Assembly: GCA_031291995.1 (NCBI GenBank)
Contig: JARLHZ010000034.1
Coordinates: 14,915-78,914 of the forward strand
DNA from: Candidatus Doudnabacteria bacterium
GTDB lineage: Bacteria > Patescibacteriota > Doudnabacteria > UBA920
Direction: 5' to 3'
DNA length: 64,000 bases
Notes under the pieces: generated by a model
Database searches by the model: none
What the model saw: only the letters and a program-made list of their open reading frames with translations
What the model was told of the DNA's origin: nothing
Shown: positions 1 to 55,227 of the stretch, one piece after another
Numbering within the stretch: the first letter of the stretch is position 1
Layout of the letters: each line of letters opens with the position of its first letter
Position numbers and translations under genes: made by a program

Positions 1-66
1 AGGATTAGTCCTTGAGTTCAAACTTGATTCGCAAGTTCGTAAAAATTCGTAATTCGTAAAATCTAT

Positions 67-606
67 ATGGAACGACTTCAGGAACAATACAATAAACAGA
101 TAGCCCCGGCACTCAAACAGAAGTTCGGTTTTAGCAATGTCATGCAGGTCCCGAAAATTTTGAAAGTGGTTGTTAATGTCGGCGTTGGCAAAGTGAAGGA
201 AGACAAGAAGAAAGTTGACCAGATTGCCGAAGAGATAAAGAAAATTACCGGCCAGGCGCCGGTTAAGACCAAGGCCCGCAAATCCATTTCCGGTTTCAAA
301 GTTCGTGAAAATCAGATTGTCGGAATTACCTGCACGCTGCGCGGCTATAAAATGTACAGTTTTTTGGATAAAGTAATTAATGTCGGCCTGCCCCGCGTGC
401 GCGATTTCCAGGGAGTTTCCAAAGACGCTTTTGACGGACGCGGCAACTACCATTTGGGATTAAAAGAACAGCTGGTATTTCCGGAAGTGTCGTCCGAAAG
501 CTTAGACAATATATTCGGTATGGAAGTTTCGATAGTCACCAACGCCGGCAAAGACGAGCCCGCCAGAGAATTATTAAAGCAGATGGGATTCCCCTTTAAG
601 AAGTAA
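67..606 (+). CDS. rplE: 50S ribosomal protein L5
   Basis: 179 aa ORF with L5-like sequence (…KQKFGF…VVNVGVG…). Sits at the head of the S14-S8-L6-L18-S5-L15-secY cluster. Confidence 0.93.
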   Translation: MERLQEQYNKQIAPALKQKFGFSNVMQVPKILKVVVNVGVGKVKEDKKKVDQIAEEIKKITGQAPVKTKARKSISGFKVRENQIVGITCTLRGYKMYSFLDKVINVGLPRVRDFQGVSKDAFDGRGNYHLGLKEQLVFPEVSSESLDNIFGMEVSIVTNAGKDEPARELLKQMGFPFKK

Positions 607-695
607 TAAGAGAATAGAGATTAGTGCTTAGTGAATAGGATAGAACGTATGTCTTCTCCTATTCACTATGCACTAGGCACTAAGCACTAAATCAA

Positions 696-893
696 ATGGC
701 CACACAAGCACAAATCGCGAAGTCCAAGAGAAGCCTGAAAAAGAACGCCAAGTTTTCCACCCGGATTACCAGGCGATGTTGGAAGTGCGGCCGCAAAGCC
801 GGGTATATGCGGGATTTTAACTTATGCAGAATTTGCTTCAGGGAATTGGCCAGTAAAGGGGAAATACCGGGAATTGTTAAAGCCAGTTGGTAA
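696..893 (+). CDS. rpsZ: 30S ribosomal protein S14 type Z (zinc-binding)
   Basis: 65 aa with a CxxC…CxxC zinc ribbon (CWKCGR…CRICFRE). Canonical position between L5 and S8. Confidence 0.9.
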
Positions 894-895
894 AT

Positions 896-990
896 TAATT
901 GACAAGATTGACATGATTGAGCAAGAATGACAAGATTGCCAATCGTAAATCATGTCAATCATTTAAATCATTTAAATCTTGTTCAATAAA
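896..990 (+). repeat. Family A intergenic repeat, copy 1 (between rpsZ and rpsH)
   Basis: TAA-ATTGACAAGATTGACATGATTGAGCAAGAATGACAAGATTGCC…AATCATGTCAATCATTTAAATCATTTAAATC. Internal 12 bp inverted repeat GATTGACATGATT/AATCATGTCAATC. Confidence 0.85.
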
Positions 991-995
991 ATATT

Positions 996-1385
996 ATGTT
1001 CACCGACCCAATCGCCGACATGTTAACCAGAATCCGAAACGCCAGTGCCGCTAAAAAAAGCGAGCTGGTTTTGCCTTACTCCAAATTTAAGGCAAACTTG
1101 GCGGATCTGTTGTTGAAAGAGGGCTTCATTTCCGGATGCGGAGAACTGGCTGGCGAACATAAAATGCTGAGAATCAGTTTGAAATATTCCGGGCAGGAAG
1201 CCATTATTTCGGGGATTAAGCGCATAAGCAAGCCTGGGCAGAGAATCTATCTGCCGGCCGACAAGTTGCCAAGAACTAATTCGGGATTCGGCGTTACCGT
1301 TATTTCCACTTCCAAGGGATTGATGACAGACAAGGAAGCAAGAAAGGCCAAGGTTGGGGGAGAGATAGTGTGCCAGGTCTGGTAA
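996..1385 (+). CDS. rpsH: 30S ribosomal protein S8
   Basis: 129 aa. N-terminus MFTDPIADMLTRIRNA is the S8 signature. Gene order supports it. Confidence 0.95.
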   Translation: MFTDPIADMLTRIRNASAAKKSELVLPYSKFKANLADLLLKEGFISGCGELAGEHKMLRISLKYSGQEAIISGIKRISKPGQRIYLPADKLPRTNSGFGVTVISTSKGLMTDKEARKAKVGGEIVCQVW

Positions 1386-1547
1386 AACGCTGAAGGGACG
1401 CTGAACTGACACCAACGCTGATACTTCGCTGAATCGTCGGGTGTCGACCTAAGCGACCAATAATCGTGTATATCGGCGATCAATCGGCGTGAAAAATTAT
1501 TACTTAGCAGCATTCATTAATTTATCCAAATTTACTAATTCAACAAT

Positions 1548-2102
1548 ATGTCCCGTATCGGCAAAAAACCCGTAATAATTCCTTCCGGCGTGAAGGTAGA
1601 GAAAAAAGATTTGACTTTGACCGTTACCGGTCCTAAAGGGACTTTAACTTTAGCCGTGCATCCCAAGGTTATTGTGAATATTACCGATAAAGAAGTTACG
1701 ATAGACGTAGCCAACAAAGAAAACAAGCAGGAACGCGCGTTGTGGGGATTATTCCGCGCTCTTACCCAGAATCTGGTTGACGGCGTGACCAAGGGTTATG
1801 AGAAAAAGCTGGAAGTTATTGGTGTCGGTTTTAAAGTTGCCACTACTCCCGGAAAGCTGACTATGGCTCTGGGTTTTTCCCATCCGGTTATAGTTGATGT
1901 GCCCAAGGATTTGACCATTGCCGTGGAAAAAAATACAATTACCGTTATGGGTGCCGACAAGCAGCGGGTTGGGCAATTTGCCGCGGAAATCCGCGAACTT
2001 AAAAAACCGGAGCCTTATAAGGGCAAGGGAATTAAATATATTGACGAAGTCGTCCGCCGCAAAGCCGGAAAAGTTGTGAAGGTGGTAGGCGGCGGCAAAT
2101 AA
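1548..2102 (+). CDS. rplF: 50S ribosomal protein L6
   Basis: 184 aa. MSRIGKKPVIIPSGVKV start is typical of L6. Follows S8. Confidence 0.95.
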   Translation: MSRIGKKPVIIPSGVKVEKKDLTLTVTGPKGTLTLAVHPKVIVNITDKEVTIDVANKENKQERALWGLFRALTQNLVDGVTKGYEKKLEVIGVGFKVATTPGKLTMALGFSHPVIVDVPKDLTIAVEKNTITVMGADKQRVGQFAAEIRELKKPEPYKGKGIKYIDEVVRRKAGKVVKVVGGGK

Positions 2103-2103
2103 G

Positions 2104-2213
2104 CAATTGACAAGATTGACATAATTGAGCAAGAATGACAAGATTGCCATTTGTAAATCATGTCAATCATGTCAATCATTTAAATCATTTAAATCATTTA
2201 AATCATTTAATTC
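2104..2213 (+). repeat. Family A intergenic repeat, copy 2 (between rplF and rplR)
   Basis: Same core, with an expanded AAATCATTT array (x4). Confidence 0.85.
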
Positions 2214-2228
2214 TTGGTTAATCAGACT

Positions 2229-2612
2229 ATGAACAGCAACAAGCAAAAAAGAGCAAAGCGAATTATCCGCCACAAACGGGTCAGGTCGACCGTGGCCGGG
2301 ACTGCCGACAGGCCACGTCTTTCCGTATTTCGCGCCAATACCCACATTTACGCCCAGGTGATTGACGATTTATCCGGAAAAACTTTGGTTTCAGCTTCCA
2401 GTTTGGAAGTTTCCGCCAAAGGCGGACCCTCCTCCGGTGGAAAAGCCAAGGCAAAAAAATCCGACATGTCCAAAGAAGTCGGTAAAATGATTGCCCAAAA
2501 GGCAATGGCCAAGAATATCAAAGCTGTCCGGTTTGACCGCGGCGGATTTGCGTATCACGGCCGGGTCAAAGCTTTGGCCGACGGCGCGCGCGAGGGTGGA
2601 TTAGAGTTCTAA
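2229..2612 (+). CDS. rplR: 50S ribosomal protein L18
   Basis: L18-like basic N-terminus and core ([18 protein letters not shown]). The ORF track starts at TTG 2214; ATG 2229 is preferred. Confidence 0.88.
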
Positions 2613-2744
2613 TTGACAAGATTGACGTGATTGAGCAAGAATGACAAGATTGCCAATCGAAAATCATGCCAATCATTTTCCGCCAAAGGCGGAGCCGCCT
2701 CCGGCGGGAAATTAACTCACATTTAAATCTTGTTCAATAATTCT
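2613..2744 (+). repeat. Family A intergenic repeat, copy 3 (between rplR and rpsE), with an inserted near-copy of an rplR internal segment
   Basis: Same core. Bases 2667-2700 (TTCCGCCAAAGGCGGAGCCGCCTCCGGCGGGAAA) nearly duplicate rplR coding bases 2411-2444. Confidence 0.8.
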
Positions 2745-3248
2745 ATGGAAAAAAGACGCAGACAATCAGGCCGGGACGGCGGCGACCGCGAACGCAATGA
2801 GTTCGACCAAAAAACCGTGGAAATTAAGCGCGTCACCCGCGTGGTGGCCGGCGGAAAACGCATGCGTTTTCGCGCGTTGGTTGTAATTGGCGACCACAAG
2901 GGCCGCGTAGGCATGGGCCTGAAAAAAGGCGCGGATGTTTCGGAAAGCGTCAACAAAGCCGTGAACGCCGCCAAAAAGAGCATGATTACATTGCCTTTAA
3001 TTAACGAAACCATTCCGCACGAAGTCAATGTTAAATATAAGTCTTCCAGTTTAATGTTCAAGCCGGCCAAGCCCGGTACCGGCGTTATTGCCGGAGGGGC
3101 GGTTCGCAGCGTTATGGAGCTTTCCGGCGTAAAGAACGTCGTCTGCAAAATGCTTGGCTCGAACAATAAAGTTAACAATGTCAAAGCCGTGTTTGCCGCT
3201 TTTAATAAAATGAAGAGCAAGTCGGCGCTGGCACAAATGCGCAAATAG
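2745..3248 (+). CDS. rpsE: 30S ribosomal protein S5
   Basis: S5 motifs (KRVTRVVAGGKRMRFRALVVIGDHKGRVG). The track start is TTG 2730; ATG 2745 is preferred. Confidence 0.9.
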   Translation: MEKRRRQSGRDGGDRERNEFDQKTVEIKRVTRVVAGGKRMRFRALVVIGDHKGRVGMGLKKGADVSESVNKAVNAAKKSMITLPLINETIPHEVNVKYKSSSLMFKPAKPGTGVIAGGAVRSVMELSGVKNVVCKMLGSNNKVNNVKAVFAAFNKMKSKSALAQMRK

Positions 3249-3337
3249 TTTACGAAGTACGAACAAGTACGAACTTACGAAAGTTTGTACTTAAGGTTCG
3301 TATGTTCGTAAAATTTCGTACTTCGTAAAATACATTT
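3249..3337 (+). repeat. Family B palindromic element (TTTACGAAGTACGAAC…GTTCGTACTTCGTAAA), copy before rplO
   Basis: About 85 bp imperfect palindrome built from TTACGAA/TTCGTAA units. Ends 9 nt before the rplO ATG. Contains TTGTAC-18-TAAAAT promoter-like hexamers. Confidence 0.85.
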
Positions 3338-3772
3338 ATGATCAAACTCCACGAACTCCACAAACACCCCAAATCCACCCACCGCCGCAAGGTTGTCGGC
3401 AGGGGTCTTGGCAGCGGCAAGGGAACCTATTCCACCCGCGGCAACAAGGGTCAAACCAAACGTACCGGACACAGCAAGATGCCTGTTAATTTTGAAGGCG
3501 GCCGCCAGCCGCTGGTTCGCCAATTGCCGAAGTTGCGCGGTTTTCGGGCTCTTGACGGCAAACCAGCCGTAGTCTCTTTGAACGAATTGGCTGTTTTTGC
3601 CGATGGTGCCACCGTGGATCTTAAATCTTTGATTGCCAAAGGTTTGGTGGATGATATGACAAAAACCGCAAAAATATTAGGCGGCGAAATTAAAAAGAAA
3701 TTAAACATAAAATTGCCAATTTCGGCATCCGCCAAAGAAGCGGTGGAAAAAGCCGGGGGCAAAGTCTTTTAG
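3338..3772 (+). CDS. rplO: 50S ribosomal protein L15
   Basis: 144 aa. GRGLGSGKGTYSTRGNKGQ is the L15 glycine-rich signature. It directly follows S5 with no L30 gene between them. Confidence 0.9.
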   Translation: MIKLHELHKHPKSTHRRKVVGRGLGSGKGTYSTRGNKGQTKRTGHSKMPVNFEGGRQPLVRQLPKLRGFRALDGKPAVVSLNELAVFADGATVDLKSLIAKGLVDDMTKTAKILGGEIKKKLNIKLPISASAKEAVEKAGGKVF

Positions 3773-3859
3773 TTTACGAAGTACGAACAGGTACGAACTT
3801 ACGAAGGTTTGTACTTAAGGTTCGTAAGTTCGTAAAATTTCGTACTTCGTAAAAAATAT
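3773..3859 (+). repeat. Family B palindromic element, copy before secY
   Basis: Near-identical to the 3249-3337 copy. Confidence 0.85.
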
Positions 3860-5140
3860 ATGAACAAACTAGCGTTAATTTGGAAAACCAAGGACCTGCG
3901 CAATAAAATTTTAATTGTAACGGGTCTGTTGTTAATTACCCGCGTACTGGCTCATATCCCGATTTCCGGCATAGATATTACCGGACTCAAAAGCTACCTC
4001 CAGCAGAGCCAGTTTTTTAATTTGTTGGATATATTTTCCGGCGGCGGCTTGACCAATTTCTCCATCGCCATGCTTGGTGTTGGTCCGTACATTACCGCCA
4101 CCATCATTATGCAGTTGTTAACCATTGTCATACCGTCCTGGGCGGAGTTGCAAAAAGAAGGCGGCGAGGCCGGCCGGCAACAGTTAAACCAATACACCCG
4201 CTGGATGACTATTGTTCTGGCTCCTCTCCAGGGTTTCGGCACCATTCGTTTGCTGCAGAGCCAGGGCGGCGCGGCGGTATTGGGAAGTTTTAGCCCGTTT
4301 GTATGGTTTACGGTTTTGTTGTCCATTACTACCGGCACGATGCTGCTTATGTGGCTGGGTGAAATTATGTCGGAATTTGACGTTGGCAACGGAGTCTCGT
4401 TGATTATTTTTGCCGGCATTGTCGCCCGCTTGCCCGCCAACCTTGGTTTTTTGCAGGGCTGGTACGATCCATCCAAGTTGCCGACAGTCTTGGCTTTTGC
4501 GGCCATGATTTTAATTGTCATTGCCGGAGTGGTTTTGGTAACTGAAGCGCAAAGGAATATTCCCATTGCCTATGCCAAGCGCGTCCGCGGCAACCAGCTG
4601 TTTGGGGGAGTGGATACTCATTTGCCGCTTCGCTTGAACCAGGCTGGAGTTATTCCGATTATTTTTGCGATTTCCGTCATGCTTTTCCCGGCCATGTTGG
4701 CCCAGTTTTTCGTCAATGCCAAATCGGGCCTATTGGCCGGGTTGGCGACAAAAACCATTGCTCTGTTCCAAAGCCAGGGGTTGTTTTATGGCGTGACTTA
4801 TTTTATTTTGGTTATGGCGTTTACGTATTTTTATACGGCTGTGGTGTTTAATCCCGAGGAAATTGCCGAAAATGTGCAAAAAAACGGCGGCTTTGTCCCA
4901 GGCCTAAGGCCTGGCGCTCAGACTGCGGATTTTTTGAGCATGGTGCTCAACCGTATTACCCTGGCCGGCGCCTTCTTTTTGGCCGTCATCGCTATTTTGC
5001 CTCTTATCTTGCAAAACTATACCGGCACTACTTCGTTAACCTTTGGCGGTACTTCTTTATTGATTGTGGTCTCCGTGGTCATCGAAGTAATCAAAAAAAT
5101 CGAAGCTCAGCTGACAATGCACGACTATGAGGGCTTTTAG
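3860..5140 (+). CDS. secY: preprotein translocase subunit SecY
   Basis: 426 aa, about 10 TM segments. Conserved position after L15. Confidence 0.93.
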   Translation: MNKLALIWKTKDLRNKILIVTGLLLITRVLAHIPISGIDITGLKSYLQQSQFFNLLDIFSGGGLTNFSIAMLGVGPYITATIIMQLLTIVIPSWAELQKEGGEAGRQQLNQYTRWMTIVLAPLQGFGTIRLLQSQGGAAVLGSFSPFVWFTVLLSITTGTMLLMWLGEIMSEFDVGNGVSLIIFAGIVARLPANLGFLQGWYDPSKLPTVLAFAAMILIVIAGVVLVTEAQRNIPIAYAKRVRGNQLFGGVDTHLPLRLNQAGVIPIIFAISVMLFPAMLAQFFVNAKSGLLAGLATKTIALFQSQGLFYGVTYFILVMAFTYFYTAVVFNPEEIAENVQKNGGFVPGLRPGAQTADFLSMVLNRITLAGAFFLAVIAILPLILQNYTGTTSLTFGGTSLLIVVSVVIEVIKKIEAQLTMHDYEGF

Positions 5141-5185
5141 ATACCGCGGATCTGCGCGCGGATAGCGACGCGGATCGGTCGCGGA

Positions 5186-5262
5186 AGCTATTATCCGTGT
5201 CATTGCGAGTGCGTCCGAAGCAATCCATATTCTGATAAGATTGCTTCGTCGTCAGCCAAAGC
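5186..5262. repeat. MITE-like solo TIR pair of the GIY-YIG-element hairpin family
   Basis: GTCATTGCGAGTGCGTCCGAAGCAATC…AAGATTGCTTCGTCGTCAGCC forms a long imperfect hairpin with no ORF between the arms. Lies downstream of secY. Confidence 0.6.
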
Positions 5263-5342
5263 CCCGAATCCCAGCAATGACAGCAATAATTTACCAATTC
5301 CCAAAAACCTGCCATAATATTGGCAGGTTTTAAAATGACTTT

Positions 5343-5891
5343 ATGGTATTATCGGATAAATCGATAAACGAATATCTGGCCAGTGGAAAAATAATAATTG
5401 AACCCGCGGTCACGCCAAACGATGTTCGTCCTGTTGGAATCAGATTACATTTGGGAGAAGGTTTGCTTCTGCCAAAATCCGGTCAGACTGTGGATTTATC
5501 GAAAGAACAGCCGGTCGATTATGATTCCATTACGATGGGTACCGACGGGTTTGTTTTAAAGCCCAGTGGATTTATTTTAGGAACAACTTTGGAGTTAATT
5601 AAGGTACCGAGAAATATTGTCTGTTTTTTGGACGGGCGTTCCACCCTGGCAAGGTTAGGTCTGATGATTCATGTTACGGCCATGGTCGCTGACGGTAATT
5701 TTGAAGAGCCCGGTTCAATTGTTTTGGAAATAAAGAATCTTTCCCCGATGAATTTAATTTTAAAACCTAACTTGCCCATAGGCATGCTGTTGTTTAATCA
5801 GATTGATCAAGAAATTGCCCAAGACGTCCAATTCCAGTATAAAGGGCAAAAAGGGGTTTTACCGCCGGACTTAAAAAATCAATTCAAGTAA
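5343..5891 (+). CDS. dcd: dCTP deaminase / dUTPase-fold protein
   Basis: 182 aa. Dcd-like N-terminus (LSDKSINEYLASGKIIIEP) and beta-rich core. Confidence 0.75.
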   Translation: MVLSDKSINEYLASGKIIIEPAVTPNDVRPVGIRLHLGEGLLLPKSGQTVDLSKEQPVDYDSITMGTDGFVLKPSGFILGTTLELIKVPRNIVCFLDGRSTLARLGLMIHVTAMVADGNFEEPGSIVLEIKNLSPMNLILKPNLPIGMLLFNQIDQEIAQDVQFQYKGQKGVLPPDLKNQFK

Positions 5892-6257
5892 ATGCAAAAC
5901 GAAGAATTCGAAAATTTGATCAACGCCGCCATAGTGGCTTTGCCGAAAAATATTTTGGCTAAACTGGATAATGTGGAAATAACCATGGAAGAAGGGGATA
6001 GCCCCGACAATTCCCTGTTTGGTTTGTATCACGGCGTGTCACAGTTAAAACGCGGTTCGACTTACGGTTACGGCTCGGTTTTACCCGACAAAATTACTAT
6101 TTATAAAGGCACTATTGAAAAATTCGCCACCGATCCCGCCGATATCCCTTTTATGGTTCGCCGCGTCGTCTGGCACGAAATCGGCCACCATTTTGGTTTT
6201 GACGAAGAAGGCGTAAGGCGCTTGGAAGAAAAGTGGCGAAGAGAGGGTAAAGTGTAA
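5892..6257 (+). CDS. small zincin-like metallopeptidase-domain protein (HExxH)
   Basis: 121 aa with a WHEIGHHFG HExxH motif near the C-terminus. Resembles minimal MMP-like Zn-protease domain proteins (COG3824-like). Start ATG abuts the dcd stop. Confidence 0.5.
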   Translation: MQNEEFENLINAAIVALPKNILAKLDNVEITMEEGDSPDNSLFGLYHGVSQLKRGSTYGYGSVLPDKITIYKGTIEKFATDPADIPFMVRRVVWHEIGHHFGFDEEGVRRLEEKWRREGKV

Positions 6258-6270
6258 ATCTTTAAGTTGA

Positions 6271-6293
6271 TTTTTTGCTCGGCCGAGCAAAAA
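6271..6293 (+). terminator. intrinsic terminator TTTTTTGCTCGGCCGAGCAAAAA after the HExxH gene
   Basis: Perfect palindrome GCTCGGCCGAGC flanked by T and A runs. Confidence 0.6.
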
Positions 6294-6400
6294 CTCAACA
6301 AGCATTTTTTAGCAAAACATGACAAAGCGGTTATTATTGACAAAATTGGGGAAAAAATGTAAAATATAAAGTTAAATGTGTGTTATAATTTAATGGAAAT

Positions 6401-6851: not shown

Positions 6852-9410
6852 ATGCCCGTTGAGCTAAGCACAATTCAAATTACGGCTCTGGTTTTAATTG
6901 CTTTGGTAGTCATTTTTTTGACTATCGCTTTTTATTATTTTAAAAGGCATCGCTATCACAGCAAACATATAGTTCCCAGAATAAAAGACTGGGTATTTTT
7001 GGAAATACAAATGCCCAAGGAAGGCTCGGAGGACAAGGACCAGCAGAGGCCGAAATCCGAGGAAGAAAAAAAGGCGTTGATTGCCGTGGCGGAGCAGTTG
7101 TTTACTACGCTTTCGGAGTCCGGACACAACAAAGGCTGGCTTTTGGGCAAGGATTATTACAGTTTTGAAATCGCATGCACGGAAAAGAAAATCAGTTTTT
7201 ATATAAATTGCCCGAAGCATTTACAGCAGCTGGTGGAAAAGCAGGTTCAGGCCCAGTATCCCCACGCCTTTGTGGAAGAAGTTAAAGGCTACAACCCGTT
7301 CCAAAAGGGCGGGACGATTGAAGTTATGGAATTGGAGCTGAACAAACAATATGTCTACCCGTACCGAACGTATAAAACCATGGAGTCGGACCCGCTGAAT
7401 TCTCTGACTAATGCCATGAGCAAGCTGCAGGAAAACGAAGGCGCGGCCATCCAGATAATTTTATCTCCGGCCGGGACTTTCTGGCAGAGCCGGCCCAGGC
7501 ACATGGCTTTGGAAATCCAGCAGGGTAAGAATCCCGAAATGGTGGAAAGAGGTCATGTCTATAAGTTATTGATAGGTTTCGCGCGATCGGTAGGACGCTC
7601 CATGGCGGGGATAGGCAACGGGAATCAAAATTACCAGGGCTCGCACGCGCATAAAGACTTGTCCGGTTATGCCTCGCCAATCCAGCTGACGCCAATGCAA
7701 AATGAAATTGTTAAAAAGCTGGAAGAAAAAGCCAGCCGCCCCGGTTACAAAACCAACATACGTTTAATTACGTCGTCCACCACGCCCGGGAGCGCGGAAA
7801 TCCACATGCGGAATCTGACCGCCGCGTTTTTACAGTATAATATGCCGCCGTTTAACGGCTTGCATCCTAAAAATCGTGACAAGAACGACGTGCTTAAGGA
7901 TTATATATTCCGCGTCTTCCGCGACAACGGCGCGCACGGCATTTTAAACACGGAAGAGCTGTCTTCCATATGGCATTTGCCCACGCCTTACATTGAAACC
8001 CCCAACATCAAATGGCTGGTATCCAAAAAAGCGCCGCCGCCGGTGAATTTGCCCAAAGAAGGTCTACTGCTTGGCCGCAGTATTTATCGCGGCCAGGAGA
8101 CCAAAGTGTTTATGGAGCGCGATGACCGCCGCCGGCATATGTATATTATCGGCCGCACCGGTTCGGGAAAAACCGAAATTATGAAATATATGTCCGTGCA
8201 GGACATTAAAAACGGCGAAGGTTTGTGCGTCATTGACCCGCACGGTGATTTTATAGAGGATATTTTGCCCCACATCCCCAAAGAGCGGGCCGAGGATGTT
8301 ATTTTATTTGAGCCGTTCGATATGGATCGGCCTATGGGATTGAATATGCTCCAGGTGGACAGCGAAGAACAAAAAGATTTTGCGGTGCAGGAAATGATCC
8401 AGATTTTTTACAAATTGGTTACCGACCCGGCCATGCTCGGACCGATGTTCGAGCACAATATGCGCAATGCTATGCTGACTCTTATGGCGGACGAAGAACA
8501 TCCCGGGACCATCACCGACATCCCGCGGATTTTTACCGACATGGAGTTCCAAAAATATAAAGTGTCCAAGCTCAAAGATCCGGTGGTTCGGCTGTTTTGG
8601 GAAAAAGAAATGGCCAAAACGTCCGACTTCCACAAATCCGAAATGCTTGGCTATTTAATTTCCAAAGTCGGCCGGTTCGTGGAAAACGCCATGATGCGAA
8701 ATATTGTCGGCCAGCCCAAATCGGCGTTTAACTTCCGTGAGGTTATGGACAAGAAAAAAATTCTGCTGATAAATTTGGCCAAAGGCAAAGTCGGTGAAAT
8801 TAACGCTAAACTTTTGGGGCTTATTATTGTCAGCAAAATCCAGATGGCAGCGCTGTCCCGCGCCGACACCAAAGAAGACAACCGTCCCGACTTTTATCTC
8901 TATGTGGATGAGTTCCAAAATTTTATTACCGACGCGTTTTCTTCCATATTATCGGAGGCCAGAAAATACCATCTTAACTTAATTGTCGCCCACCAGTATC
9001 TCGGACAGCTCGAACAGCAGGCCGGGGCGCAGGGAGCGGGCAGTAAGGATTTGCGCGACGCCGTATTCGGCAATGCCGGCACCATGGTTTGTTTCCGCAT
9101 TGGCGCCGAGGATAGCGAAATTATGGCCAAGGAGTTTAAACCGACATTTAACGAATTTGATTTGGTTAATGTGGACCGTTATAACGCATTTTTGAAGCTG
9201 ATGATAAACGGCACCGCCAGCAAGCCGTTTAATGTGGCCACTTACCCATTGCTCAGAAATGGAAATGAAGAGCAGGCTAAGGCTATACGACAGTTGTCAC
9301 GCTTAAAGCACGGGCGTGCCCGGGCCGAAGTGGAAGAAGAAATTTTGGAAGCCGGCCAAGTGGCGGAAAATATGGCGGCGGCTTTGCCGGACATTGAACG
9401 GGGGTTGTAG
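6852..9410 (+). CDS. membrane-anchored P-loop ATPase, VirB4/TrbE/TraC-like (T4SS/conjugation-type ATPase)
   Basis: 852 aa. N-terminal TM helix. Walker A IIGRTGSGKTE at about residue 433 and Walker B YLYVDEFQNF. The domain order (about 400 aa N-domain, then NTPase) matches the VirB4/CagE/TrbE family rather than coupling proteins. Confidence 0.6.
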   Translation: MPVELSTIQITALVLIALVVIFLTIAFYYFKRHRYHSKHIVPRIKDWVFLEIQMPKEGSEDKDQQRPKSEEEKKALIAVAEQLFTTLSESGHNKGWLLGKDYYSFEIACTEKKISFYINCPKHLQQLVEKQVQAQYPHAFVEEVKGYNPFQKGGTIEVMELELNKQYVYPYRTYKTMESDPLNSLTNAMSKLQENEGAAIQIILSPAGTFWQSRPRHMALEIQQGKNPEMVERGHVYKLLIGFARSVGRSMAGIGNGNQNYQGSHAHKDLSGYASPIQLTPMQNEIVKKLEEKASRPGYKTNIRLITSSTTPGSAEIHMRNLTAAFLQYNMPPFNGLHPKNRDKNDVLKDYIFRVFRDNGAHGILNTEELSSIWHLPTPYIETPNIKWLVSKKAPPPVNLPKEGLLLGRSIYRGQETKVFMERDDRRRHMYIIGRTGSGKTEIMKYMSVQDIKNGEGLCVIDPHGDFIEDILPHIPKERAEDVILFEPFDMDRPMGLNMLQVDSEEQKDFAVQEMIQIFYKLVTDPAMLGPMFEHNMRNAMLTLMADEEHPGTITDIPRIFTDMEFQKYKVSKLKDPVVRLFWEKEMAKTSDFHKSEMLGYLISKVGRFVENAMMRNIVGQPKSAFNFREVMDKKKILLINLAKGKVGEINAKLLGLIIVSKIQMAALSRADTKEDNRPDFYLYVDEFQNFITDAFSSILSEARKYHLNLIVAHQYLGQLEQQAGAQGAGSKDLRDAVFGNAGTMVCFRIGAEDSEIMAKEFKPTFNEFDLVNVDRYNAFLKLMINGTASKPFNVATYPLLRNGNEEQAKAIRQLSRLKHGRARAEVEEEILEAGQVAENMAAALPDIERGL

Positions 9411-12660: not shown

Positions 12661-13487
12661 ATGGATAGTATCATTTTGCGTGGGCCGCATAAAGACTTTG
12701 AGGCAATAAAAAAACTTGACGAAAACGGCATGGAATTTTGGCTTGCCCGTGAATTAATGCCCTTGCTGGGTTACGAAAAGTGGCAGAATTTTGAAGAGGT
12801 GGTCGGTAAGGCGGCGCGGGCTTGCATTCAGAGTGGTCAGGTTGTGGATAACCATTTTACCGGAATCAGTAAAATGATAAAAATAGCCAAAAATGCGGTT
12901 AGGCCGGCTAAGGATTACAAGCTTGATCGCTATGCTTGTTACTTAATTGCGCAAAATGGAGATACAAGCAAAGAACCAATTGCCTTGGCGCAGACTTATT
13001 TTGCCTTACAAACCAGAAGGCAGGAGATTTTTGAAAATTTGCCGGAAGACGAAAAACGTTTATTTGTCCGAGGGCAGGTTAAATCTCAAAATAAAAAACT
13101 CATGGGTACCGCCAAAGCCGCCGGCGTAACGAAGTTTGGCGTTTTTAACGACGCTGGTTACCTCGGGCTTTATGGAATGCATTTGGCGGATGTGGAAAAG
13201 CGGAAAGTCATAAAAAAAGCGAACTGCTCGACAGGGCAGGAACAACCGAATTGGCCGCAAATCTTTTTAGGATAACTCAGACGCACGAAAAATTAGATAA
13301 TGACAAAATTCAGGGAGACTATCAAGCCAGCAGGGTTCATAATATGGTGGGTGGAAAAGTCAGGCAAACAATTAAAGATATTGGCGGAGTTCTTCCGGAA
13401 GACTTGCCTGCCGAAAGGCATATTTGCCAAATTCAAAGAGAAGTAAAAAGCTTAAAATCAGGCAATAAAAAATTGAAAGTGAAATAA
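12661..13487 (+). pseudogene. dinD: DNA-damage-inducible protein D (DinD)-like gene split by a frameshift at an A7 homopolymer
   Basis: ORF 12661-13275 matches the DinD N-terminal two-thirds (EFWLARELMPLLGY…RYACYLIAQNGD…QTYFALQTRRQE). Overlapping ORF 13251-13487 matches the DinD C-terminus (ELAANLFRITQT…GGKVRQTIKDIGG). The frames switch at aaaaaaa 13212-13218. Confidence 0.7.
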
Positions 13488-22141: not shown

Positions 22142-22142
22142 C

Positions 22143-22227
22143 AGATGGAATTTACGAAGTACGAACAGGTACGAACTTACGAAGTTTGTCCGTTCGTAAG
22201 TTCGTAAACATCCATACTTCGTAAACT
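22143..22227 (+). repeat. Family B palindromic element, copy between rpiB and rpe
   Basis: ATTTACGAAGTACGAACAGGTACGAACTTACGAAG…CGTTCGTAAGTTCGTAAAC…ACTTCGTAAAC. Confidence 0.8.
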
Positions 22228-23744: not shown

Positions 23745-23745
23745 T

Positions 23746-23822
23746 GTCATTGCGAGTGCATCCGAAGCAATCTTTTTATAAATAGACTGCTTCGTCGGCT
23801 GCACTCATCGTAACGACATGAC
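23746..23822. repeat. MITE-like solo TIR pair of the GIY-YIG-element hairpin family (between tktA and tktB)
   Basis: GTCATTGCGAGTGCATCCGAAGCAATC, 13 nt, then GACTGCTTCGTCGGCTGCACTCATCGTAACGAC. The arms are imperfect reverse complements. Confidence 0.6.
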
Positions 23823-23842
23823 CTCTATCACAAATAAAATTT

Positions 23843-24817: not shown

Positions 24818-24828
24818 AACCTCTTTAT

Positions 24829-25209
24829 GTCATTCCGAGGGAGTGCATCCGACCGAGGAATCCCTTAGTATATGAAAGAGTATCAATATTTCGTATATAT
24901 AATGGCCAGTAATAGCGGCACGTTATATACTGGCATAACAAGTGATTTGTATAAAAGGGTTTATCAGCATAAAAATAACCTAATTGAAGGTTTTACAAAA
25001 AAATACCAATGTCATAAACTTGTCTATTTTGAGGAAACTACCGAGGCGGAATCGGCGATTGCAAGAGAAAAGCAAATTAAAGGTTGGAGCAGGTGGAAGA
25101 AGGAAGATTTGATAAGGTCAAAAAATTTTTACTGGGAAGACCTATCCAAAAGCTGGGAATAATAAACTAAGGGATCCCTCGGCCGTATTCCCAGGCCTCG
25201 GGATGACAC
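24829..25209. mobile_element. about 380 bp element: GIY-YIG (COG2827) gene flanked by about 36 bp imperfect terminal inverted repeats
   Basis: Left GTCATTCCGAGGGAGTGCATCCGACCGAGGAATCCC (24829-24866) and right GGGATCCCTCGGCCGTATTCCCAGGCCTCGGGATGAC (25172-25209) are reverse complements of one another with a few mismatches. Confidence 0.6.
24872..25162 (+). CDS. small stand-alone GIY-YIG nuclease-domain protein (COG2827/YhbQ-like)
   Basis: 96 aa. YFVYIMAS…GTLYTGITSDLYKRVYQH GIY…YIG motif. Confidence 0.8.
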   Translation: MKEYQYFVYIMASNSGTLYTGITSDLYKRVYQHKNNLIEGFTKKYQCHKLVYFEETTEAESAIAREKQIKGWSRWKKEDLIRSKNFYWEDLSKSWE

Positions 25210-26614: not shown

Positions 26615-26711
26615 ATTTATAAAATTGGTGTAATTAAGGAACTAAGATTCCTGCCTTCGCAGGAATGACACAAGTGTACTAATCCTAGAGGCGGGTATCT
26701 CCTAGTGAGTC

Positions 26712-27064
26712 ATTCCTGGCAGTAGCATCCGAGACCAGGAATCTTGAATCCCATGAAGAATTATTTTGTTTATATATTGGCAAGTAAAAAAGATGGAGTA
26801 TTGTATATTGGAGTTACAGGTGATTTAATAAGAAGAGTATGGGAACATAAAAATAACATAATAGAGGGTTTTACCAAGAAGTATTTTGTGCACCGGTTAG
26901 TATATTTTGAATCAACGACAGATGTTGAAAGTGCAATAAACAGGGAGACGCAATTAAAAAGATGGAAGCGCGATTGGAAAATTAAACTTTTTGAAAAAGA
27001 TAATCCCAATTGGGAAGATTTATATCCAAAAATAATTTAAGATTCCTGCCTTCGCAGGAATTAC
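26712..27064. mobile_element. second GIY-YIG element bounded by the same hairpin-repeat family
   Basis: Left GTCATTCCTGGCAGTAGCATCCGAGACCAGGAATCT (26712-26747). Right AGATTCCTGCCTTCGCAGGAATTAC (27040-27064). Extra partner copies lie at 26645-26673, 27076-27115 and 27161-27187. Confidence 0.55.
26744..27040 (+). CDS. small stand-alone GIY-YIG nuclease-domain protein (COG2827-like), paralogue of 24872-25162
   Basis: 98 aa. YFVYILAS…GVLYIGVTGDLIRRVWEH, colinear with the first copy. Confidence 0.8.
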   Translation: MNPMKNYFVYILASKKDGVLYIGVTGDLIRRVWEHKNNIIEGFTKKYFVHRLVYFESTTDVESAINRETQLKRWKRDWKIKLFEKDNPNWEDLYPKII

Positions 27065-27075
27065 GCACTTAGAAT

Positions 27076-27187
27076 ATGTCATTCCTGGCGAGTGCAGCCG
27101 AGACCAGGAATCTTACAACCAAACTGGTATTAAAATTTATAACTTTTATCATAAATAATTTAAGATTCCTGCCTTCGCAGGAACGAC
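27076..27187. repeat. gene-less TIR pair (Y arm 27076-27115, X arm 27161-27187) of the GIY-YIG-element family, directly upstream of gap
   Basis: GTCATTCCTGGCGAGTGCAGCCGAGACCAGGAATCT, about 45 nt AT-rich spacer, then AGATTCCTGCCTTCGCAGGAACGAC. Same arms as the intact element with the gene missing. Confidence 0.55.
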
Positions 27188-27200
27188 ATAAAGGGAAAAC

Positions 27201-30766: not shown

Positions 30767-32020
30767 ATGAAAATCACAAAAATTCAGGCTCTGGAGGTTT
30801 TGGACAGCAGGGGAAACCCGACGGTGCAAACCACGGTTTGGGCCGGAGATTTGAGCGCTAAGGCTTCTGTCCCGAGTGGCGCGTCAACAGGCGTGCATGA
30901 GGCTTTGGAATTGCGCGATAATGACAAATATCGCTTCGGGGGCAAAGGCGTTCTCAAAGCCTGCCTTAATGTTGAGAAAAAGATTTTTAAAGCCTTAAAA
31001 GGCTTGTCCGTAGCGGATCAGCAAAAAATTGACCGCACCATGTTGGAGCTGGACGGTACGGCCAATAAGGCAAAACTGGGCGCTAACGCGATTTTATCAG
31101 TTTCTCTTGCCACGGCCAGACTGGCCGCCAAAGCCAAAAAAATTGAACTTTATGAGTACCTGGCAGCTACGTACGGCTATAAGGTAAAGAGTTTGCCCAC
31201 GCCGTTTTTTAATGTTATAAACGGGGGTGTCCATGCCGACAGCGGTTTGGATATCCAGGAATTTTTTTTGATACCGCTTAAAGGCAATTTTGCAAATAAA
31301 CTTAGGATGGCGGCGGAAGTATTCCATTCGCTTAAATCGCAATTGGCCATTCAGGGGCTTGCCACTTCGGTTGGAGACGAGGGCGGCTTTGCGCCAAAAC
31401 TTTCTTCTAACGAGGACGCGCTTAAACAATTGGAGACTGCTATAAAATCGGCTAAATATAAATTGGGCTCGGATTTTGCCTTGGGATTAGACGCGGCGTC
31501 CAGTGAATTTTTTGATGAGAAAAAAGGAGTTTATGAATTGAAAGCGTCAAATATAACGGCGACCCCGGCCAATGTCTATCAGATTTATAAAAAATGGCTG
31601 GCCAAATATCCGCTGCTTGCCCTGGAAGATGGCTGCGCTCAGGATGACTTTTCGGGTTGGAAAGCTTTAACTCAAAATTTGGGTGATAAAACTTTACTTA
31701 TTGGCGACGATATTTTTGTCACAAATCCTATCCGCATCCAAATGGGTATAGAGCAAAAAATTGCCAACGCGGTGTTAATAAAAGTTAACCAGATTGGCAC
31801 GTTAACAGAAACAATCGACGCTATTAAGCTTTCGCAAAAGCATAAATATAAAATAGTATTTTCTCATCGCAGCGGCGAAACTTGCGATAGTTTTATTGCC
31901 GACTTAGCCGTAGCGACAAATGCCGATTATATTAAGAGCGGAGCGCCGAGCCGGGGCGAAAGGCTGGCCAAATATAATCGATTGATGGAAATAGAGGAAC
32001 AATTGACAAAATTTAAATAA
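30767..32020 (+). CDS. eno: enolase (phosphopyruvate hydratase)
   Basis: The ORF opens at 30686, but the enolase N-terminus MKITKIQALEVLDSRGNPTV begins at ATG 30767. An extended -10 TGGTATAAT lies at 30731-30739 upstream. Confidence 0.93.
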   Translation: MKITKIQALEVLDSRGNPTVQTTVWAGDLSAKASVPSGASTGVHEALELRDNDKYRFGGKGVLKACLNVEKKIFKALKGLSVADQQKIDRTMLELDGTANKAKLGANAILSVSLATARLAAKAKKIELYEYLAATYGYKVKSLPTPFFNVINGGVHADSGLDIQEFFLIPLKGNFANKLRMAAEVFHSLKSQLAIQGLATSVGDEGGFAPKLSSNEDALKQLETAIKSAKYKLGSDFALGLDAASSEFFDEKKGVYELKASNITATPANVYQIYKKWLAKYPLLALEDGCAQDDFSGWKALTQNLGDKTLLIGDDIFVTNPIRIQMGIEQKIANAVLIKVNQIGTLTETIDAIKLSQKHKYKIVFSHRSGETCDSFIADLAVATNADYIKSGAPSRGERLAKYNRLMEIEEQLTKFK

Positions 32021-32098
32021 TTGACAAAATTGACATAATTTTGAGCCCGTACATTTTGCTCAATTATGTCAATTATGTCAATTATGCTCAATATTTTA
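32021..32098 (+). repeat. Family A-related intergenic repeat, copy 4 (between eno and gpmI), plus a 9-mer tandem repeat
   Basis: TAA-TTGACAAAATTGACATAATTTTGAGC…, then (AATTATGTC)x3 running into the gpmI start region. Confidence 0.7.
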
Positions 32099-35566: not shown

Positions 35567-35664
35567 ACAAGGATACAAGTAAACAAGTAAACAAGTAAAC
35601 AAGTAAACAAGTAAACAAGTAAACAAGTAAACAAGGATACAAGGATACAAGGATACAAGGATTG
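35558..35664. repeat. microsatellite: (GTAAACAA)x7 flanked by (GGATACAA)x4
   Basis: Perfect 8-mer tandem arrays. The recJ stop codon TAA lies inside the first repeat unit. Confidence 0.9.
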
Positions 35665-35695
35665 GCCCAGATTGCTAGATCGTTAAATTGACACA

Positions 35696-36103
35696 ATGAA
35701 TTTAATTATAAACACAGACGGGGGAGCCAGGGGTAATCCGGGTCCGGCCGGGATTGGCGTGGTCATTCGCAACGCCGAAAATCAAATTATCGCGGAACAT
35801 AAACAGTATATTGGCGAAGCGACCAATAATGTGGCCGAGTATAAGGCTCTGATATTGGCGTTGTCGGAAGCCTTAGCCCATAGCCCTACTCCCTTAGCCC
35901 TGGAAATCCGCATGGACAGCGAACTGATTGTCCGCCAGATGCAGGGCCGCTATAAAATTAAGGAACCCACGCTAAAACTGCTGGCCGCGGAAGTGTTAAA
36001 ACTGATTAAAAATTTTAAGCACGTGGCCTTTAGTCACGTGCCTAGAGAACAAAACAAAGAGGCCGACAAACTGGTCAACGAAGCCATAGACGCGGCAATA
36101 TAA
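35696..36103 (+). CDS. rnhA: ribonuclease HI
   Basis: 135 aa. INTDGGARGNPGPAGIGVVI RNase H N-terminus and a DSELIVRQM-type motif. Confidence 0.85.
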   Translation: MNLIINTDGGARGNPGPAGIGVVIRNAENQIIAEHKQYIGEATNNVAEYKALILALSEALAHSPTPLALEIRMDSELIVRQMQGRYKIKEPTLKLLAAEVLKLIKNFKHVAFSHVPREQNKEADKLVNEAIDAAI

Positions 36104-49581: not shown

Positions 49582-49585
49582 TTCC

Positions 49586-54611: not shown

Positions 54612-54612
54612 T

Positions 54613-55203: not shown

Positions 55204-55227
55204 ACTAAAAAATAAACTGAGATTATT

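Follow-up and report, generated by a model that had tools for sequence, protein, structure and literature searches.

Family A Copies in the Window

The DNA considered here (the window, a stretch of 64,000 nucleotides from a Candidatus Doudnabacteria bacterium, a lineage of the ultra-small Candidate Phyla Radiation, or CPR) carries on its plus strand the ribosomal-protein operon segment rpsZ-rpsH-rplF-rplR-rpsE (696–3248), in which Pfam matches identify S14 (696–893), S8 (996–1385), L6 (1548–2102), L18 (2229–2612), and S5 (2745–3248), and within which no TGnTATAAT promoter is found; farther along, the enolase gene (eno), ending at 32020, is followed by gpmI (iPGM, 32102–33718). The ribosomal proteins of the window are 63–91% identical (mostly 75–88%) to proteins of Doudnabacteria MAGs, and an exact-protein look-up with its L18 found nothing on record.

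The junctions rpsZ>rpsH, rplF>rplR, rplR>rpsE, and eno>gpmI hold copies 1 to 4 of one repeat family, named Family A. The original prediction had proposed one family with these four spacer copies, and both a motif scan and a covariance model bear it out: a scan of the window for ATTGACAAGATTGACAT with at most three mismatches returns 13 matches where shuffles predict 0.13, and all of them fall in the four loci, the 9-mer being without copies elsewhere in the 64 kb; the covariance model R1, trained on 15 Family A copies, recovers exactly four window loci, namely 898–987, 2106–2194 (where the element was judged by eye to reach 2222), 2612–2738, and 32002–32092. The view that structured spacers this large are unusual for a ribosomal-protein operon was upheld as well, and several boundaries were corrected. 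The copies, first placed as ending about 15 nt before the start codon, end 6–8 nt before the ATG; the head motif described directly after the stop codons is exact in copies 1 and 2, reads ACGTG in copy 3, and carries a TT insertion before GAGC in copy 4; and copy 4, rightly assigned to the eno/gpmI junction, begins at 32002 inside eno and not at 32021.

Copy 1 (898–987, plus strand; R1 score 91 bits, E 1e-16) fills the rpsZ>rpsH spacer (894–995) in the order stop codon TAA, 4 nt, element, 8 nt, ATG. Copy 2 (2106–2222, plus strand), in the rplF>rplR spacer, follows the same order, with 3 nt behind the stop codon and 6 nt ahead of the ATG; over 82 nt it matches copy 1 at 94% identity, and its right arm has grown to about six AATCATKTM/TTTAAATC units. 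Copy 3 (2612–2738, plus strand), in the rplR>rpsE spacer, opens with the final A of the rplR TAA stop codon, and its gap to the ATG is again 6 nt. These three copies form a G-type subfamily, while copy 4 (32002–32092) belongs to an A/T-type one, each subfamily being self-complementary; the strand of copy 4 is ambiguous (R1 scores the minus strand at 71 bits and the plus strand at 68.5), and its end lies 6 nt ahead of the ATG at 32102. The final six codons of eno, together with its stop codon, are the first two units of copy 4, and these units have non-coding counterparts in another locus (L045).

A GC-rich palindrome, TTTCCGCCAAAGGCGGAGCCGCCTCCGGCGGGAAA (2677–2711, no strand assigned), lies within the right arm of copy 3, and is found at the identical place in the Family A copies of two other loci (L039 and L006). 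A second GC palindrome (2410–2444, plus strand), 89% identical to the first, lies inside the rplR coding sequence, where it constitutes an in-frame insertion of about 10 residues; in the L18 alignment, this insertion is missing from the proteins of L020, L007, and L047.

Hairpin Architecture and Folding

Family A elements are non-coding and 80–130 nt long, no conserved ORF being seen by eye in the compared sequences. Every copy forms a long, imperfect hairpin out of units of about 9 nt, with ATTGACAWG units on one arm and AATCATKTM or TTTAAATC units on the opposite arm, and this left/right asymmetry (TTGACA units versus TTTAAAT units) is preserved across genomes. Terminal inverted repeats are present: ATTGACAAGATT pairs with AATCTTGTTCAAT through 12 pairs and one bulge, most of these terminal pairs never vary, pair 9-93 covaries, and this outer stem is better conserved than any other part of the element; the whole foldable stem comprises about 35–40 imperfect pairs. 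The window copies are stabler than their dinucleotide shuffles (z from -2.7 to -7.0), with minimum free energies of -24.8 kcal/mol for copy 1 (z -3.7), -40.4 kcal/mol for copy 3 (z -4.3), and -29.5 kcal/mol for copy 4 (z -7.0); folding in both orientations, proposed as a check on the original prediction, works about equally well for either strand.

Complementarity between the arms is kept within the family, since 85.6% of the alignment cells pair, against 28–58% when the pairing partners are shifted. Across the alignment, G-C alternates with A-U at four pairs; in essence this covariation amounts to a single coordinated change from G/C to A/T and thus represents few independent events. RNAalifold returned no structure from an initial MAFFT alignment that was upset by the differing numbers of units, and a hand-drawn structure on a cleaner alignment was used instead. 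Among 142 strong hairpin spacers the sense strand folds no better than the antisense strand (the antisense is slightly better, p = 0.02), and G-U pairs are not commoner on it; there is thus no RNA-specific signature in these spacers, so that complementarity could be kept at the DNA level. At the Rfam gathering threshold, Family A has no match and a tRNA-Gln is the sole hit in the window; at a relaxed threshold, just sub-threshold miRNA-like hairpin matches appear, on neighbouring spacers.

Distribution, Geometry, and Turnover

The search of related genomes that had been suggested, with copies placed relative to stop and start codons, extends the family to about 50 copies in some 20 Doudnabacteria-like genomes and metagenome contigs (a tally of about 44 loci in about 17 CPR assemblies, to which 7 metagenome contigs and the window are added), with nearly always the same geometry. 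Of 46 copies, 80% end 5–8 nt before the ATG and 52% leave a gap of exactly 6 nt, whichever way the element faces; most begin -1 to 8 nt past the stop codon, and the flanks TAAAATA on the left and CAAATT-ATG on the right recur. Copies co-oriented with the gene number 33 (72%) and inverted ones 13 (28%), a bias (p = 0.0045) which suggests some strand-specific selection. The family also occurs at transcription-unit starts and between convergent genes, and the genes lying downstream of it elsewhere include fpg, dnaJ, mreB, and ABC-transporter and response-regulator genes. Several third-party-annotated (TPA) assemblies in this set bear “Saccharibacteria” labels that look unreliable: in L017 and L022 the gene context is near-identical to that of Doudnabacteria MAGs, and L031 carries a RecJ-like gene 64% identical to that of the window.

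Outside the CPR, matches to a 21-mer in Kiritimatiellia, Alphaproteobacteria, Armatimonadota, and probably Lachnospiraceae were judged by eye to be coding coincidences (M-I-D-K-I-D), and others (Oscillospiraceae, Luminiphilus, Algoriphagus, Melainabacteria, and others) were excluded as lacking the element architecture; phage records and viral contigs gave no Family A match.

Turnover of the copies is rapid. In the closest relatives, whose S8 is 84–87% identical, the three equivalent ribosomal-protein junctions are occupied by other hairpin families; the orthologous junctions of L055, L059, and L060 lack Family A and carry other hairpin families. This pattern indicates replacement and not a clean empty site, which was seen for Family B only (13 nt, at S5>L15 in L055). 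Two copies at different junctions of L027 are 99% identical; taken together with the nested and in-frame GC palindromes and with the replacement of families at orthologous junctions, this pair is evidence of copying. Over the whole family, identity within genomes (0.644) is similar to that between genomes (0.635), with no sign of global concerted evolution, and the element interior is conserved between copies. No fixed target-site duplication emerges from the flanks, whose longest match is 1.61 nt on average (1.25 +/- 0.18 when the pairings are shuffled), with no consistent length or sequence, and no transposase able to move Family A is present among the about 70 window proteins scanned. Assembly breaks fall inside copies in L054.

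Hairpin Spacers in Doudnabacteria Operons

Family A is one of many hairpin families filling most gene junctions in Doudnabacteria genomes. In the ribosomal-protein operons of these genomes, most intercistronic spacers are hairpins built of subrepeats and belonging to many unrelated families, which differ at orthologous junctions even between the closest relatives. Among co-directional spacers of 40–200 nt, 45% of 205 have z < -3, versus 14% of 22 in non-CPR control loci; the stems begin a median of 3 nt past the stop codon, and the families other than Family A end 6–30 nt before the ATG (median 14 nt). Spacer lengths are bimodal, the genes being either overlapping or very closely spaced, or else separated by a full hairpin; in the operon, about 19% of the sequence between 606 and 5343 is spacer. 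Arrays of direct units only are also present, in the window (35567–35665) and at the start of L007. A G-rich 5' arm facing a C-rich 3' arm was discarded as a general rule, the counts being 65 versus 40 overall and 48 versus 39 (p = 0.39) once Family A is left out. CPR genomes are thought to be small and streamlined; our literature search on intergenic hairpins, MITEs, and intercistronic stem-loops in CPR, Patescibacteria, and Doudnabacteria found no description of such spacers.

Comparison with Known Repeat Systems

Family A shares with MITEs a short size, multiple dispersed copies, and terminal inverted repeats; a fixed target-site duplication, also typical of MITEs, was not found, and no parent IS element or transposase with matching ends turned up among the about 70 window proteins. 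The CREE/NEMIS elements of Neisseria are non-coding sequences of about 100–150 bp with inverted-repeat ends, dispersed near genes and co-transcribed with them; they fold into long hairpins, vary in presence or absence at orthologous sites between genomes, and, when bound or cleaved by RNase III, alter the expression of the neighbouring gene (PMC2649163). Family A resembles them as a set of dispersed non-coding hairpins of similar scale, with inverted-repeat ends and absent from the equivalent junctions of its closest relatives. CREE, however, have 26-nt inverted repeats, a TA target duplication, an IHF site, and -10/-35 boxes at their ends, whereas Family A is unrelated in sequence, shows no detectable duplication and no canonical -10 box at its ends, has arms made of tandem units of about 9 nt, and fills the stop-to-start spacer with a fixed 6-nt gap; identity with Correia elements was thus rejected on sequence, TA duplication, and -10 box. 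The REP/BIME sequences of enterobacteria and pseudomonads (as REPINs, moved by RAYT) are extragenic palindromes located inside operons just past stop codons; they lie in either orientation and make the mRNA segments upstream of them more stable. The likeness lies in the intra-operon position beyond stop codons and in the two orientations; REPs, for their part, are 20–40 nt long, carry a conserved GTAG head, and are accompanied by a RAYT gene, and Family A, at 80–130 nt, without a GTAG head and with no Y1_Tnp match in the window, is not a REP/REPIN.

The pneumococcal BOX, RUP, and SPRITE repeats are modular intergenic sequences that form stable stem-loops in transcripts (PMC3049150). Family A is similar to them, and to ERIC, as a modular intergenic stem-loop, and BOX also has a tandemly repeated internal module; BOX modules are nevertheless about 45–60 nt, versus 9-nt units mirrored on both arms in Family A, and for the BOX modules neither a fixed relation to start codons nor saturation of ribosomal-protein operons is reported. 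Rickettsia palindromic elements (RPE) are small palindromes inserted in frame into essential genes (PMC10969869); the companion GC palindrome in L18 resembles them, a likeness that does not extend to Family A, which touches coding sequence solely at the eno end. The intergenic TAACTGA heptamer repeats of Beggiatoaceae, cyanobacteria, and Bacteroidetes, for which a translational role has been proposed (PMC4679880), form direct arrays only, whereas the Family A units are mirrored as a hairpin. As regards possible function, Family A would work like the imperfect hairpins that separate successive cistrons of a long polycistronic transcript and define processed mRNA ends at the RNase III sites of the phage T7 early region and in plastid intercistronic stem-loops, if the RNA-level interpretation given below is right; those hairpins, unlike Family A, are not repeat families with turnover.

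Possible Roles of the Hairpins

The original prediction read the tandem TTGACA boxes as a promoter or regulator-binding site, an interpretation that the data do not sustain. An array of promoters or operators, in which these boxes recruit RNA polymerase or a regulator and provide each downstream gene with its own start or control, appears quite improbable to us. A consensus scan gives a sole promoter-like match, a weak TTGACA-N18-AAGAAT present in copies 1–3; it agrees with the consensus at 10 of 12 positions, its A-A-R-A-A-T box is retained in most homologues, and the inverted TTGACA...TGTCAA layout is operator-like, but AAGAAT lacks the first-position T, the spacing is 18 nt, and the unit spacing of about 9 bp mismatches the DNA helical repeat. 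The recognisable promoters of this genome are instead extended -10 boxes, TGnTATAAT, without TTGACA upstream: about 10 are intergenic in the window, none falls within 1–6380, or inside or near any Family A copy, and even the relaxed form TGnTAnAAT is absent from every window copy, so that identity with a sigma-70 type promoter was rejected. Furthermore, other genomes show a -10 box 1–4 nt upstream of the element; in four loci (L004, L015, L035, and L028) it lies 3–4 nt upstream (TGnTATAAT in three of them, and in L015 ATGTATAAT, minus the spacer base), so that there the element is a transcribed leader and not a promoter; the 28% of copies facing the wrong way, and the unrelated hairpin families at the same junctions in relatives, are further difficulties. 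As for the RNA processing site, the attenuator, and the small mobile repeat, originally held to be equally possible, the first and the last fit best, and an attenuator specific to ribosomal-protein genes is unlikely because the element also precedes fpg, dnaJ, mreB, and ABC-transporter and response-regulator genes. A presumed reliance of CPR bacteria on taking up DNA could favour a role as uptake signal sequences; with four loci in 64 kb and no outside copies of the 9-mer, the density is far below that of such signals. TIGR stem-loop arrays, with palindromic stems around short variable spacers, are found in CPR, where TIGR-Tas systems are common, and tigRNAs are defined by tandem units, by box C/D motifs flanking two variable 8–12 nt spacers, and by an adjoining Tas (Nop-domain) gene (PMC12045711; bioRxiv 10.64898/2026.09.09.750476). 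Family A copies are dispersed singletons with a conserved interior, no box C (RUGAUGA)/box D (CUGA) pairs were seen by eye, and no Nop-domain/Tas gene was found among the about 70 window proteins scanned; identity with TIGR arrays was rejected, and stand-alone TIGR-type guide RNAs or uptake signals are the explanations to which we attach hardly any probability.

More serious, and in our opinion possible rather than likely, is a purely selfish or neutral palindrome, which would proliferate by transposition or gene conversion with no role in expression, persist at harmless sites only (immediately behind a stop codon and no nearer than 6 nt to a start codon), and owe its hairpin to its inverted repeats as a by-product. 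The rapid turnover of families at orthologous junctions, the near-identical copies at different junctions, the nested and in-frame companion palindrome, the two orientations, the Watson-Crick-symmetric arms with no advantage of the sense strand, and the assembly breaks within copies of L054 all agree with it, and confinement to tolerated insertion sites in a compact genome predicts much the same geometry. It is less easily reconciled with the filling of most junctions in genomes thought to be streamlined, spacers amounting to about 19% of the operon stretch, with the tight 6-nt distance from the ATG in either orientation, with the conserved arm asymmetry and the orientation bias, and with the failure to find either a transposase among the window proteins or a target-site duplication. 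Improbable, by comparison, is a coupling of translation, in which the stem would place the next start codon close to the stop codon and the terminating ribosome, having melted the stem base, would pass to the next AUG, replacing internal initiation driven by a Shine-Dalgarno sequence. The distances from stop codon to stem and from stem to AUG, the conservation of the outer 12-bp stem above all other parts, the bimodal spacer lengths, and the near absence of Shine-Dalgarno motifs (a tetramer of this kind precedes just 6 of 60 genes, the leaders being A/T-rich and G-poor) are compatible with it; against it, geometry is its sole basis, elements also lie at transcription-unit starts and between convergent genes, and the other hairpin families stop 6–30 nt short of the ATG. 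In E. coli, moreover, REP studies report that hairpins within about 15 nt of the stop codon lower the expression of the upstream gene.

The interpretation that we favour, with a confidence that is about evenly balanced, is that Family A is a dispersed, palindromic, MITE/REP-like repeat of Doudnabacteria, co-transcribed with its host genes, any action of which would be that of an RNA hairpin punctuating the operon. Copies would spread, by transposition or gene conversion, among the short intergenic spacers of a genome, displacing one another over evolution, and each would be transcribed together with its flanking genes, as we infer for the window; the hairpin may then shield the 3' end of the preceding cistron or mark where the transcript is cut (by an RNase III-type enzyme or at the foot of the stem), so that the following cistron would keep a short G-poor leader, fit for initiation that does without a Shine-Dalgarno sequence. 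In favour of this reading stand the architecture and geometry shared between genomes, the preserved complementarity, the signs of copying, the orientation bias, and the wider pattern of hairpin spacers, and, as indirect support for a role in RNA, the position inside an operon free of TGnTATAAT promoters, the place behind -10 boxes in other genomes, and the folding stability; the missing RNA-specific signal, the few independent events behind the covariation, the failure to find a fixed target-site duplication or a transposase among the window proteins, and a within-genome identity no higher overall than that between genomes weigh against it. A bolder extension, which we regard as rather unlikely, would make hairpin spacers a lineage-wide, required punctuation of polycistronic mRNAs in CPR lacking Shine-Dalgarno initiation: every junction would need a self-folding module, which would either hand the terminating ribosome to the next AUG or be cleaved, yielding mRNAs that end in a protective 3' hairpin and begin with a leader of about 6 nt; Family A would be a portable “stop-hairpin-start” cassette whose flanks span from stop codon to start codon, rival cassette families replacing each other at shared junctions.

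Significance

The CPR (Patescibacteria) are a large and mostly uncultured share of bacterial diversity, in which gene expression is almost unstudied, and repeat-hairpin junctions are apparently a regular and undescribed feature of Doudnabacteria operons: most junctions, including those of the universally conserved ribosomal-protein cluster, hold subrepeat hairpins of 60–130 nt whose families turn over fast. In practical terms, these elements fragment assemblies and lead gene callers astray, and could be used as lineage markers. Should they be selfish, they represent a striking saturation by mobile DNA of the sole free sites of a streamlined genome, extending to an in-frame insertion in a ribosomal protein and to the replacement of the C-terminal codons of a gene; if they are functional, the hairpins would reveal how polycistronic mRNAs are processed or translated without initiation led by Shine-Dalgarno sequences.

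Family A copies and their hairpin structure

The original description of this region agrees with the sequence: allowing at most three mismatches, ATTGACAAGATTGACAT has 13 matches in the window against 0.13 expected, all of them within the four loci of Family A, a palindromic repeat whose copies lie at 898-987 (copy 1, rpsZ–rpsH), 2106-2222 (copy 2, rplF–rplR), 2612-2738 (copy 3, rplR–rpsE, with a GC palindrome nested at 2677-2711) and 32002-32092 (copy 4). This last copy had been placed between eno and gpmI; the repeat is indeed found there, but its start falls inside eno, whose last six codons and stop codon come from the element, and the units that end eno in the window are non-coding in the comparison locus L045. 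According to Pfam, the genes adjoining the copies encode L5, S14, S8, L6, L18, S5, L15, enolase and iPGM.

Every window copy is a long imperfect hairpin, whose left arm is built from units of about 9 nt (ATTGACAWG) and whose right arm consists of partial complements of these units, AATCATGTC or TTTAAATC. Folding in both orientations, which had been proposed as a check, gave similar structures on either strand, with a stability exceeding that of dinucleotide shuffles (z from -2.7 to -7.0). In the alignment of Family A copies (A2), on which the hairpin was drawn by hand, standard pairs occupy 85.6% of cells, while in a control with the partners slid by 1-3 columns pairing reaches only 28-58%; in the same alignment, four pairs (9-93, 18-83, 28-73 and 37-64) switch between G-C and A-U. 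Since G-type copies 1-3 and A-type copy 4 coexist in the window, each being self-complementary, genome composition alone does not account for this switching. One arm is not a plain mirror image of the other; two TTGACA units are kept on the left and the right-arm unit facing them is always TTWAAT-like, so that G·A and C·U mismatches are conserved. The transcribed strand displays neither a folding advantage nor an excess of G-U pairs, so that the data fit selection at the RNA level or upkeep of a palindrome at the DNA level alike.

Distribution of Family A

An exact scan for ATTGACAARATTGACRTRATT, with one genome per species, yielded 46 loci, against about two expected by chance (our own estimate from pattern length and collection size); 32 of them are Patescibacteria contigs, mostly of Doudnabacteria, and nearly all of these have the Family A architecture. 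The matches in Kiritimatiellia, Alphaproteobacteria and Armatimonadota were set aside as apparent coding coincidences (M-I-D-K-I-D), and so were the remaining non-CPR matches, which are without this architecture. Related genomes had been suggested as a place to look for further copies, and a covariance model built from 15 copies of the A2 alignment (R1) did identify 44 distinct ones across the window and the comparison loci, seven of them on metagenome contigs recovered by a window-specific 24-mer. The downstream genes include rpsH, rplR, rplE, rplP, rpsC, rpsM, rplB and rpmJ, together with dnaJ, fpg, mreB, an ABC-transporter permease and a response regulator, the latter group indicating that Family A is not a feature of ribosomal-protein genes alone. 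A search of phage and viral collections recovered no copies, and an Rfam search returned no matching family.

The ribosomal proteins of the window are 63-91% (mostly 75-88%) identical to those of Doudnabacteria MAGs, and L30 is absent between S5 and L15, a known CPR trait. Among the comparison loci, L008, L011, L014, L017, L022, L024, L026, L031, L041 and L044 are third-party-annotated (TPA) assemblies labelled ‘uncultured Candidatus Saccharibacteria’; for at least L017 and L022 the gene context is near-identical to that of Doudnabacteria MAGs, and the RecJ-like gene of L031 has 64% identity to its counterpart in the window. These labels look unreliable, and Family A may therefore be restricted to Doudnabacteria-like lineages.

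Geometry between stop and start codons

Of the 46 copies abutting a gene start, counted from the last Family A base (…CAAT), 80% end 5-8 nt before the ATG and 52% exactly 6 nt before it, independently of which arm faces the gene; in the window copies the gap is 6-8 nt, shorter than the roughly 15 nt of the original description. The distance from the upstream stop codon to the first base is mostly -1 to 8 nt, the stop sometimes lying within the element, and 33 copies share the orientation of the downstream gene while 13 are inverted (p = 0.0045). Genes unrelated to one another have the same immediate flanks of the element beside them: its left side carries TAAAATA or TAAATTA, its right side CAAATT or CAACTT followed by the ATG. 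No target-site duplication of fixed length is detectable around the element. In effect, Family A is the entire spacer between genes.

Other hairpin families and turnover

Family A is one instance of a general pattern. Hairpins of 60-120 nt, with arms made of tandem 7-10 nt subrepeats and belonging to many unrelated sequence families, occupy most intercistronic spacers in the S10/spc operons of L020, L027, L007, L055, L059 and L060, and the window follows the same pattern with Family B, a hairpin at 607-695 and others. Among co-directional spacers of 40-200 nt, z is below -3 in 45% of 205 from CPR loci vs 14% of 22 from non-CPR control loci. Spacers have a bimodal length distribution (up to 20 nt, or 40-110 nt); over all families, the median distance is 3 nt from the stop codon to the start of the stem and 14 nt from the end of the stem to the ATG, Family A being the short extreme for the latter distance.

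Family B (TTTACGAAGTACGAAC…GTTCGTACTTCGTAAA) lies at 3249-3337 (rpsE–rplO), 3773-3859 (rplO–secY) and 22142-22227 (rpiB–rpe), with a half copy at 28-60 before rplE, and is found in L055 too (S10–L3 and L15–secY). The spacer at 607-695 (rplE–rpsZ), of a TAGTGCTTAGTGAATAGGA… family, has a relative at L027 3359-3439, and the ACGCTGA-repeat spacer at 1386-1547 (rpsH–rplF) has an orthologue at L060 4391-4552. A subrepeat hairpin (CTAACTACGAATCCGTACTAATATACGAAT…) at 49585-49665 separates a PBP gene (47833-49581) from a convergent minus-strand ORF (49680-50057); hairpin spacers thus occur between convergent genes as well. A direct tandem octamer array at 35567-35665, (ACAAGTAA)x7 then (ACAAGGAT)x4, stands just upstream of an RNase H-like gene (35696-36103), and in L007 a (CTCACTA)n heptamer array likewise precedes rplX.

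The occupants of a given junction differ among genomes: rpsZ–rpsH holds Family A in the window, L007 and L047 and other families in L020, L027, L055, L059 and L060, while rplF–rplR holds Family A in the window and L020 and other families in L007, L027, L047, L055 and L060. Of the relatives whose DNA was usable, the three closest (S8 84-87% identical) lack Family A at all three ribosomal-protein junctions that it fills in the window. Each genome reuses its own few families at many junctions, a TAAGT-type family occurring at at least 10 in L055. Two L027 copies of Family A at different junctions are 99% identical; the GC palindrome (TTCCGCCAAAGGCGGA…) is nested at one common point of Family A in the window, L039 and L006, stands alone in an L020 spacer (3986-4086), and lies in frame within rplR (2410-2444 in the window), making L18 about 10 residues longer in the window and L027, an insertion absent from L18 of three relatives (L020, L007 and L047). 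In-frame insertion of this kind has been described for Rickettsia palindromic elements (PMC10969869), which the GC palindrome resembles in this respect. Moreover, at the site of Family B in the window, L055 has a 13-nt ‘empty’ S5–L15 spacer. The near-identical pair, the palindrome sites and the empty spacer show copying between sites, via transposition or gene conversion; no transposase was found among the approximately 70 window proteins scanned.

Other genes and elements in the window

A cluster of glycolysis and pentose-phosphate genes contains two small genes for stand-alone GIY-YIG nucleases (24872-25162 and 26744-27040, in the regions 24818-25202 and 26615-27200). Inverted repeats of the GATTCCTGCCTTCGCAGGAAT type flank the second, GC-rich repeats resembling them stand beside the first, and related GTCATTGCGAG… repeats occur within the spacers 5141-5342 and 23745-23842. 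Genes and repeats are probably selfish cassettes. A TraG/VirD4-like coupling protein and several genes without Pfam match (6852-9410) directly follow the ribosomal-protein/secY/zincin cluster; gene order is syntenic with L055 up to a GtrA-like gene and so does not stem from a recent insertion, and a Bro-N domain gene (12661-13275) lies further on, past L055 coverage. A large serine recombinase gene (51979-53514, minus strand), which abuts or overlaps a plus-strand tRNA-Gln (51985-52059) and is followed by several ORFs without Pfam match (54090-55776), probably marks an element integrated at this tRNA. Of two tandem overlapping histidyl-tRNA-synthetase-like genes (58002-59327 and 59296-60663), one may be a HisZ-like paralogue, given the histidine-related genes nearby (hisIE, 63239-63838).

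Promoters and possible function

The TTGACA boxes had been taken to suggest promoter or regulator sites, and a consensus scan does find TTGACA-N18-AAGAAT in copies 1-3. The clear promoters of this organism, however, are extended -10 boxes (TGnTATAAT) without an upstream TTGACA, which precede tRNA-Gln and about nine genes in the window (for example at 6381, 10462, 15174, 16921, 30731, 41805, 50780 on the minus strand, 51922 and 55940); the window scan found none within 1-6380 and none in any Family A copy. Elsewhere the -10 box lies upstream of the element, at 3-4 nt in L004, L035 and L028 (TGnTATAAT) and in L015 (ATGTATAAT, with the spacer base missing); in L052 it is 1 nt upstream and overlaps the end of rpsH, which may be coincidence. 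From such a box, transcription would begin in the first bases of Family A, and the leader would then open with the hairpin. Specific tests contradict the promoter or operator reading, as they do the readings as a ribosomal-protein attenuator, a TIGR guide RNA or a DNA-uptake signal. Leader sequences in the window are short, rich in A/T and poor in G; the base at -1 is T for 67% of genes, and a Shine-Dalgarno-like tetramer precedes only 6 of 60 genes; eno probably starts at 30767, downstream of the 30731 promoter, rather than at 30686.

Among known elements, Family A comes nearest to Correia elements (PMC2649163), REP/BIME, pneumococcal BOX, RUP and SPRITE repeats (PMC3049150), and to MITEs as a general class (PMC2229807, PMC10969869); for short units adjoining start codons, the nearest are TAACTGA repeat arrays (PMC4679880). 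Family A is neither a REP, having no GTAG head and no RAYT gene in the window, nor a Correia element, having no TA duplication and no end promoters. It is a MITE only in part: its copies are many and end in terminal inverted repeats, yet target-site duplication is missing and no parent element is known. The searchable literature yielded no description of hairpin arms built from subrepeats, of stop-to-start bracketing with a fixed 6-nt gap, or of competing families filling most ribosomal-protein operon junctions.

With high confidence, Family A is a dispersed palindromic repeat of Doudnabacteria which occupies and replaces intercistronic spacers. Its inferred role is probably that of punctuation: Family A would be transcribed inside operons or leaders and fold, and its hairpin would shield mRNA ends or set where they lie, the short leader left behind serving Shine-Dalgarno-independent initiation. 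That it is a purely selfish passenger is a strong rival; a role in ribosome hand-over (coupling) between genes, the more novel variant, fits its geometry.
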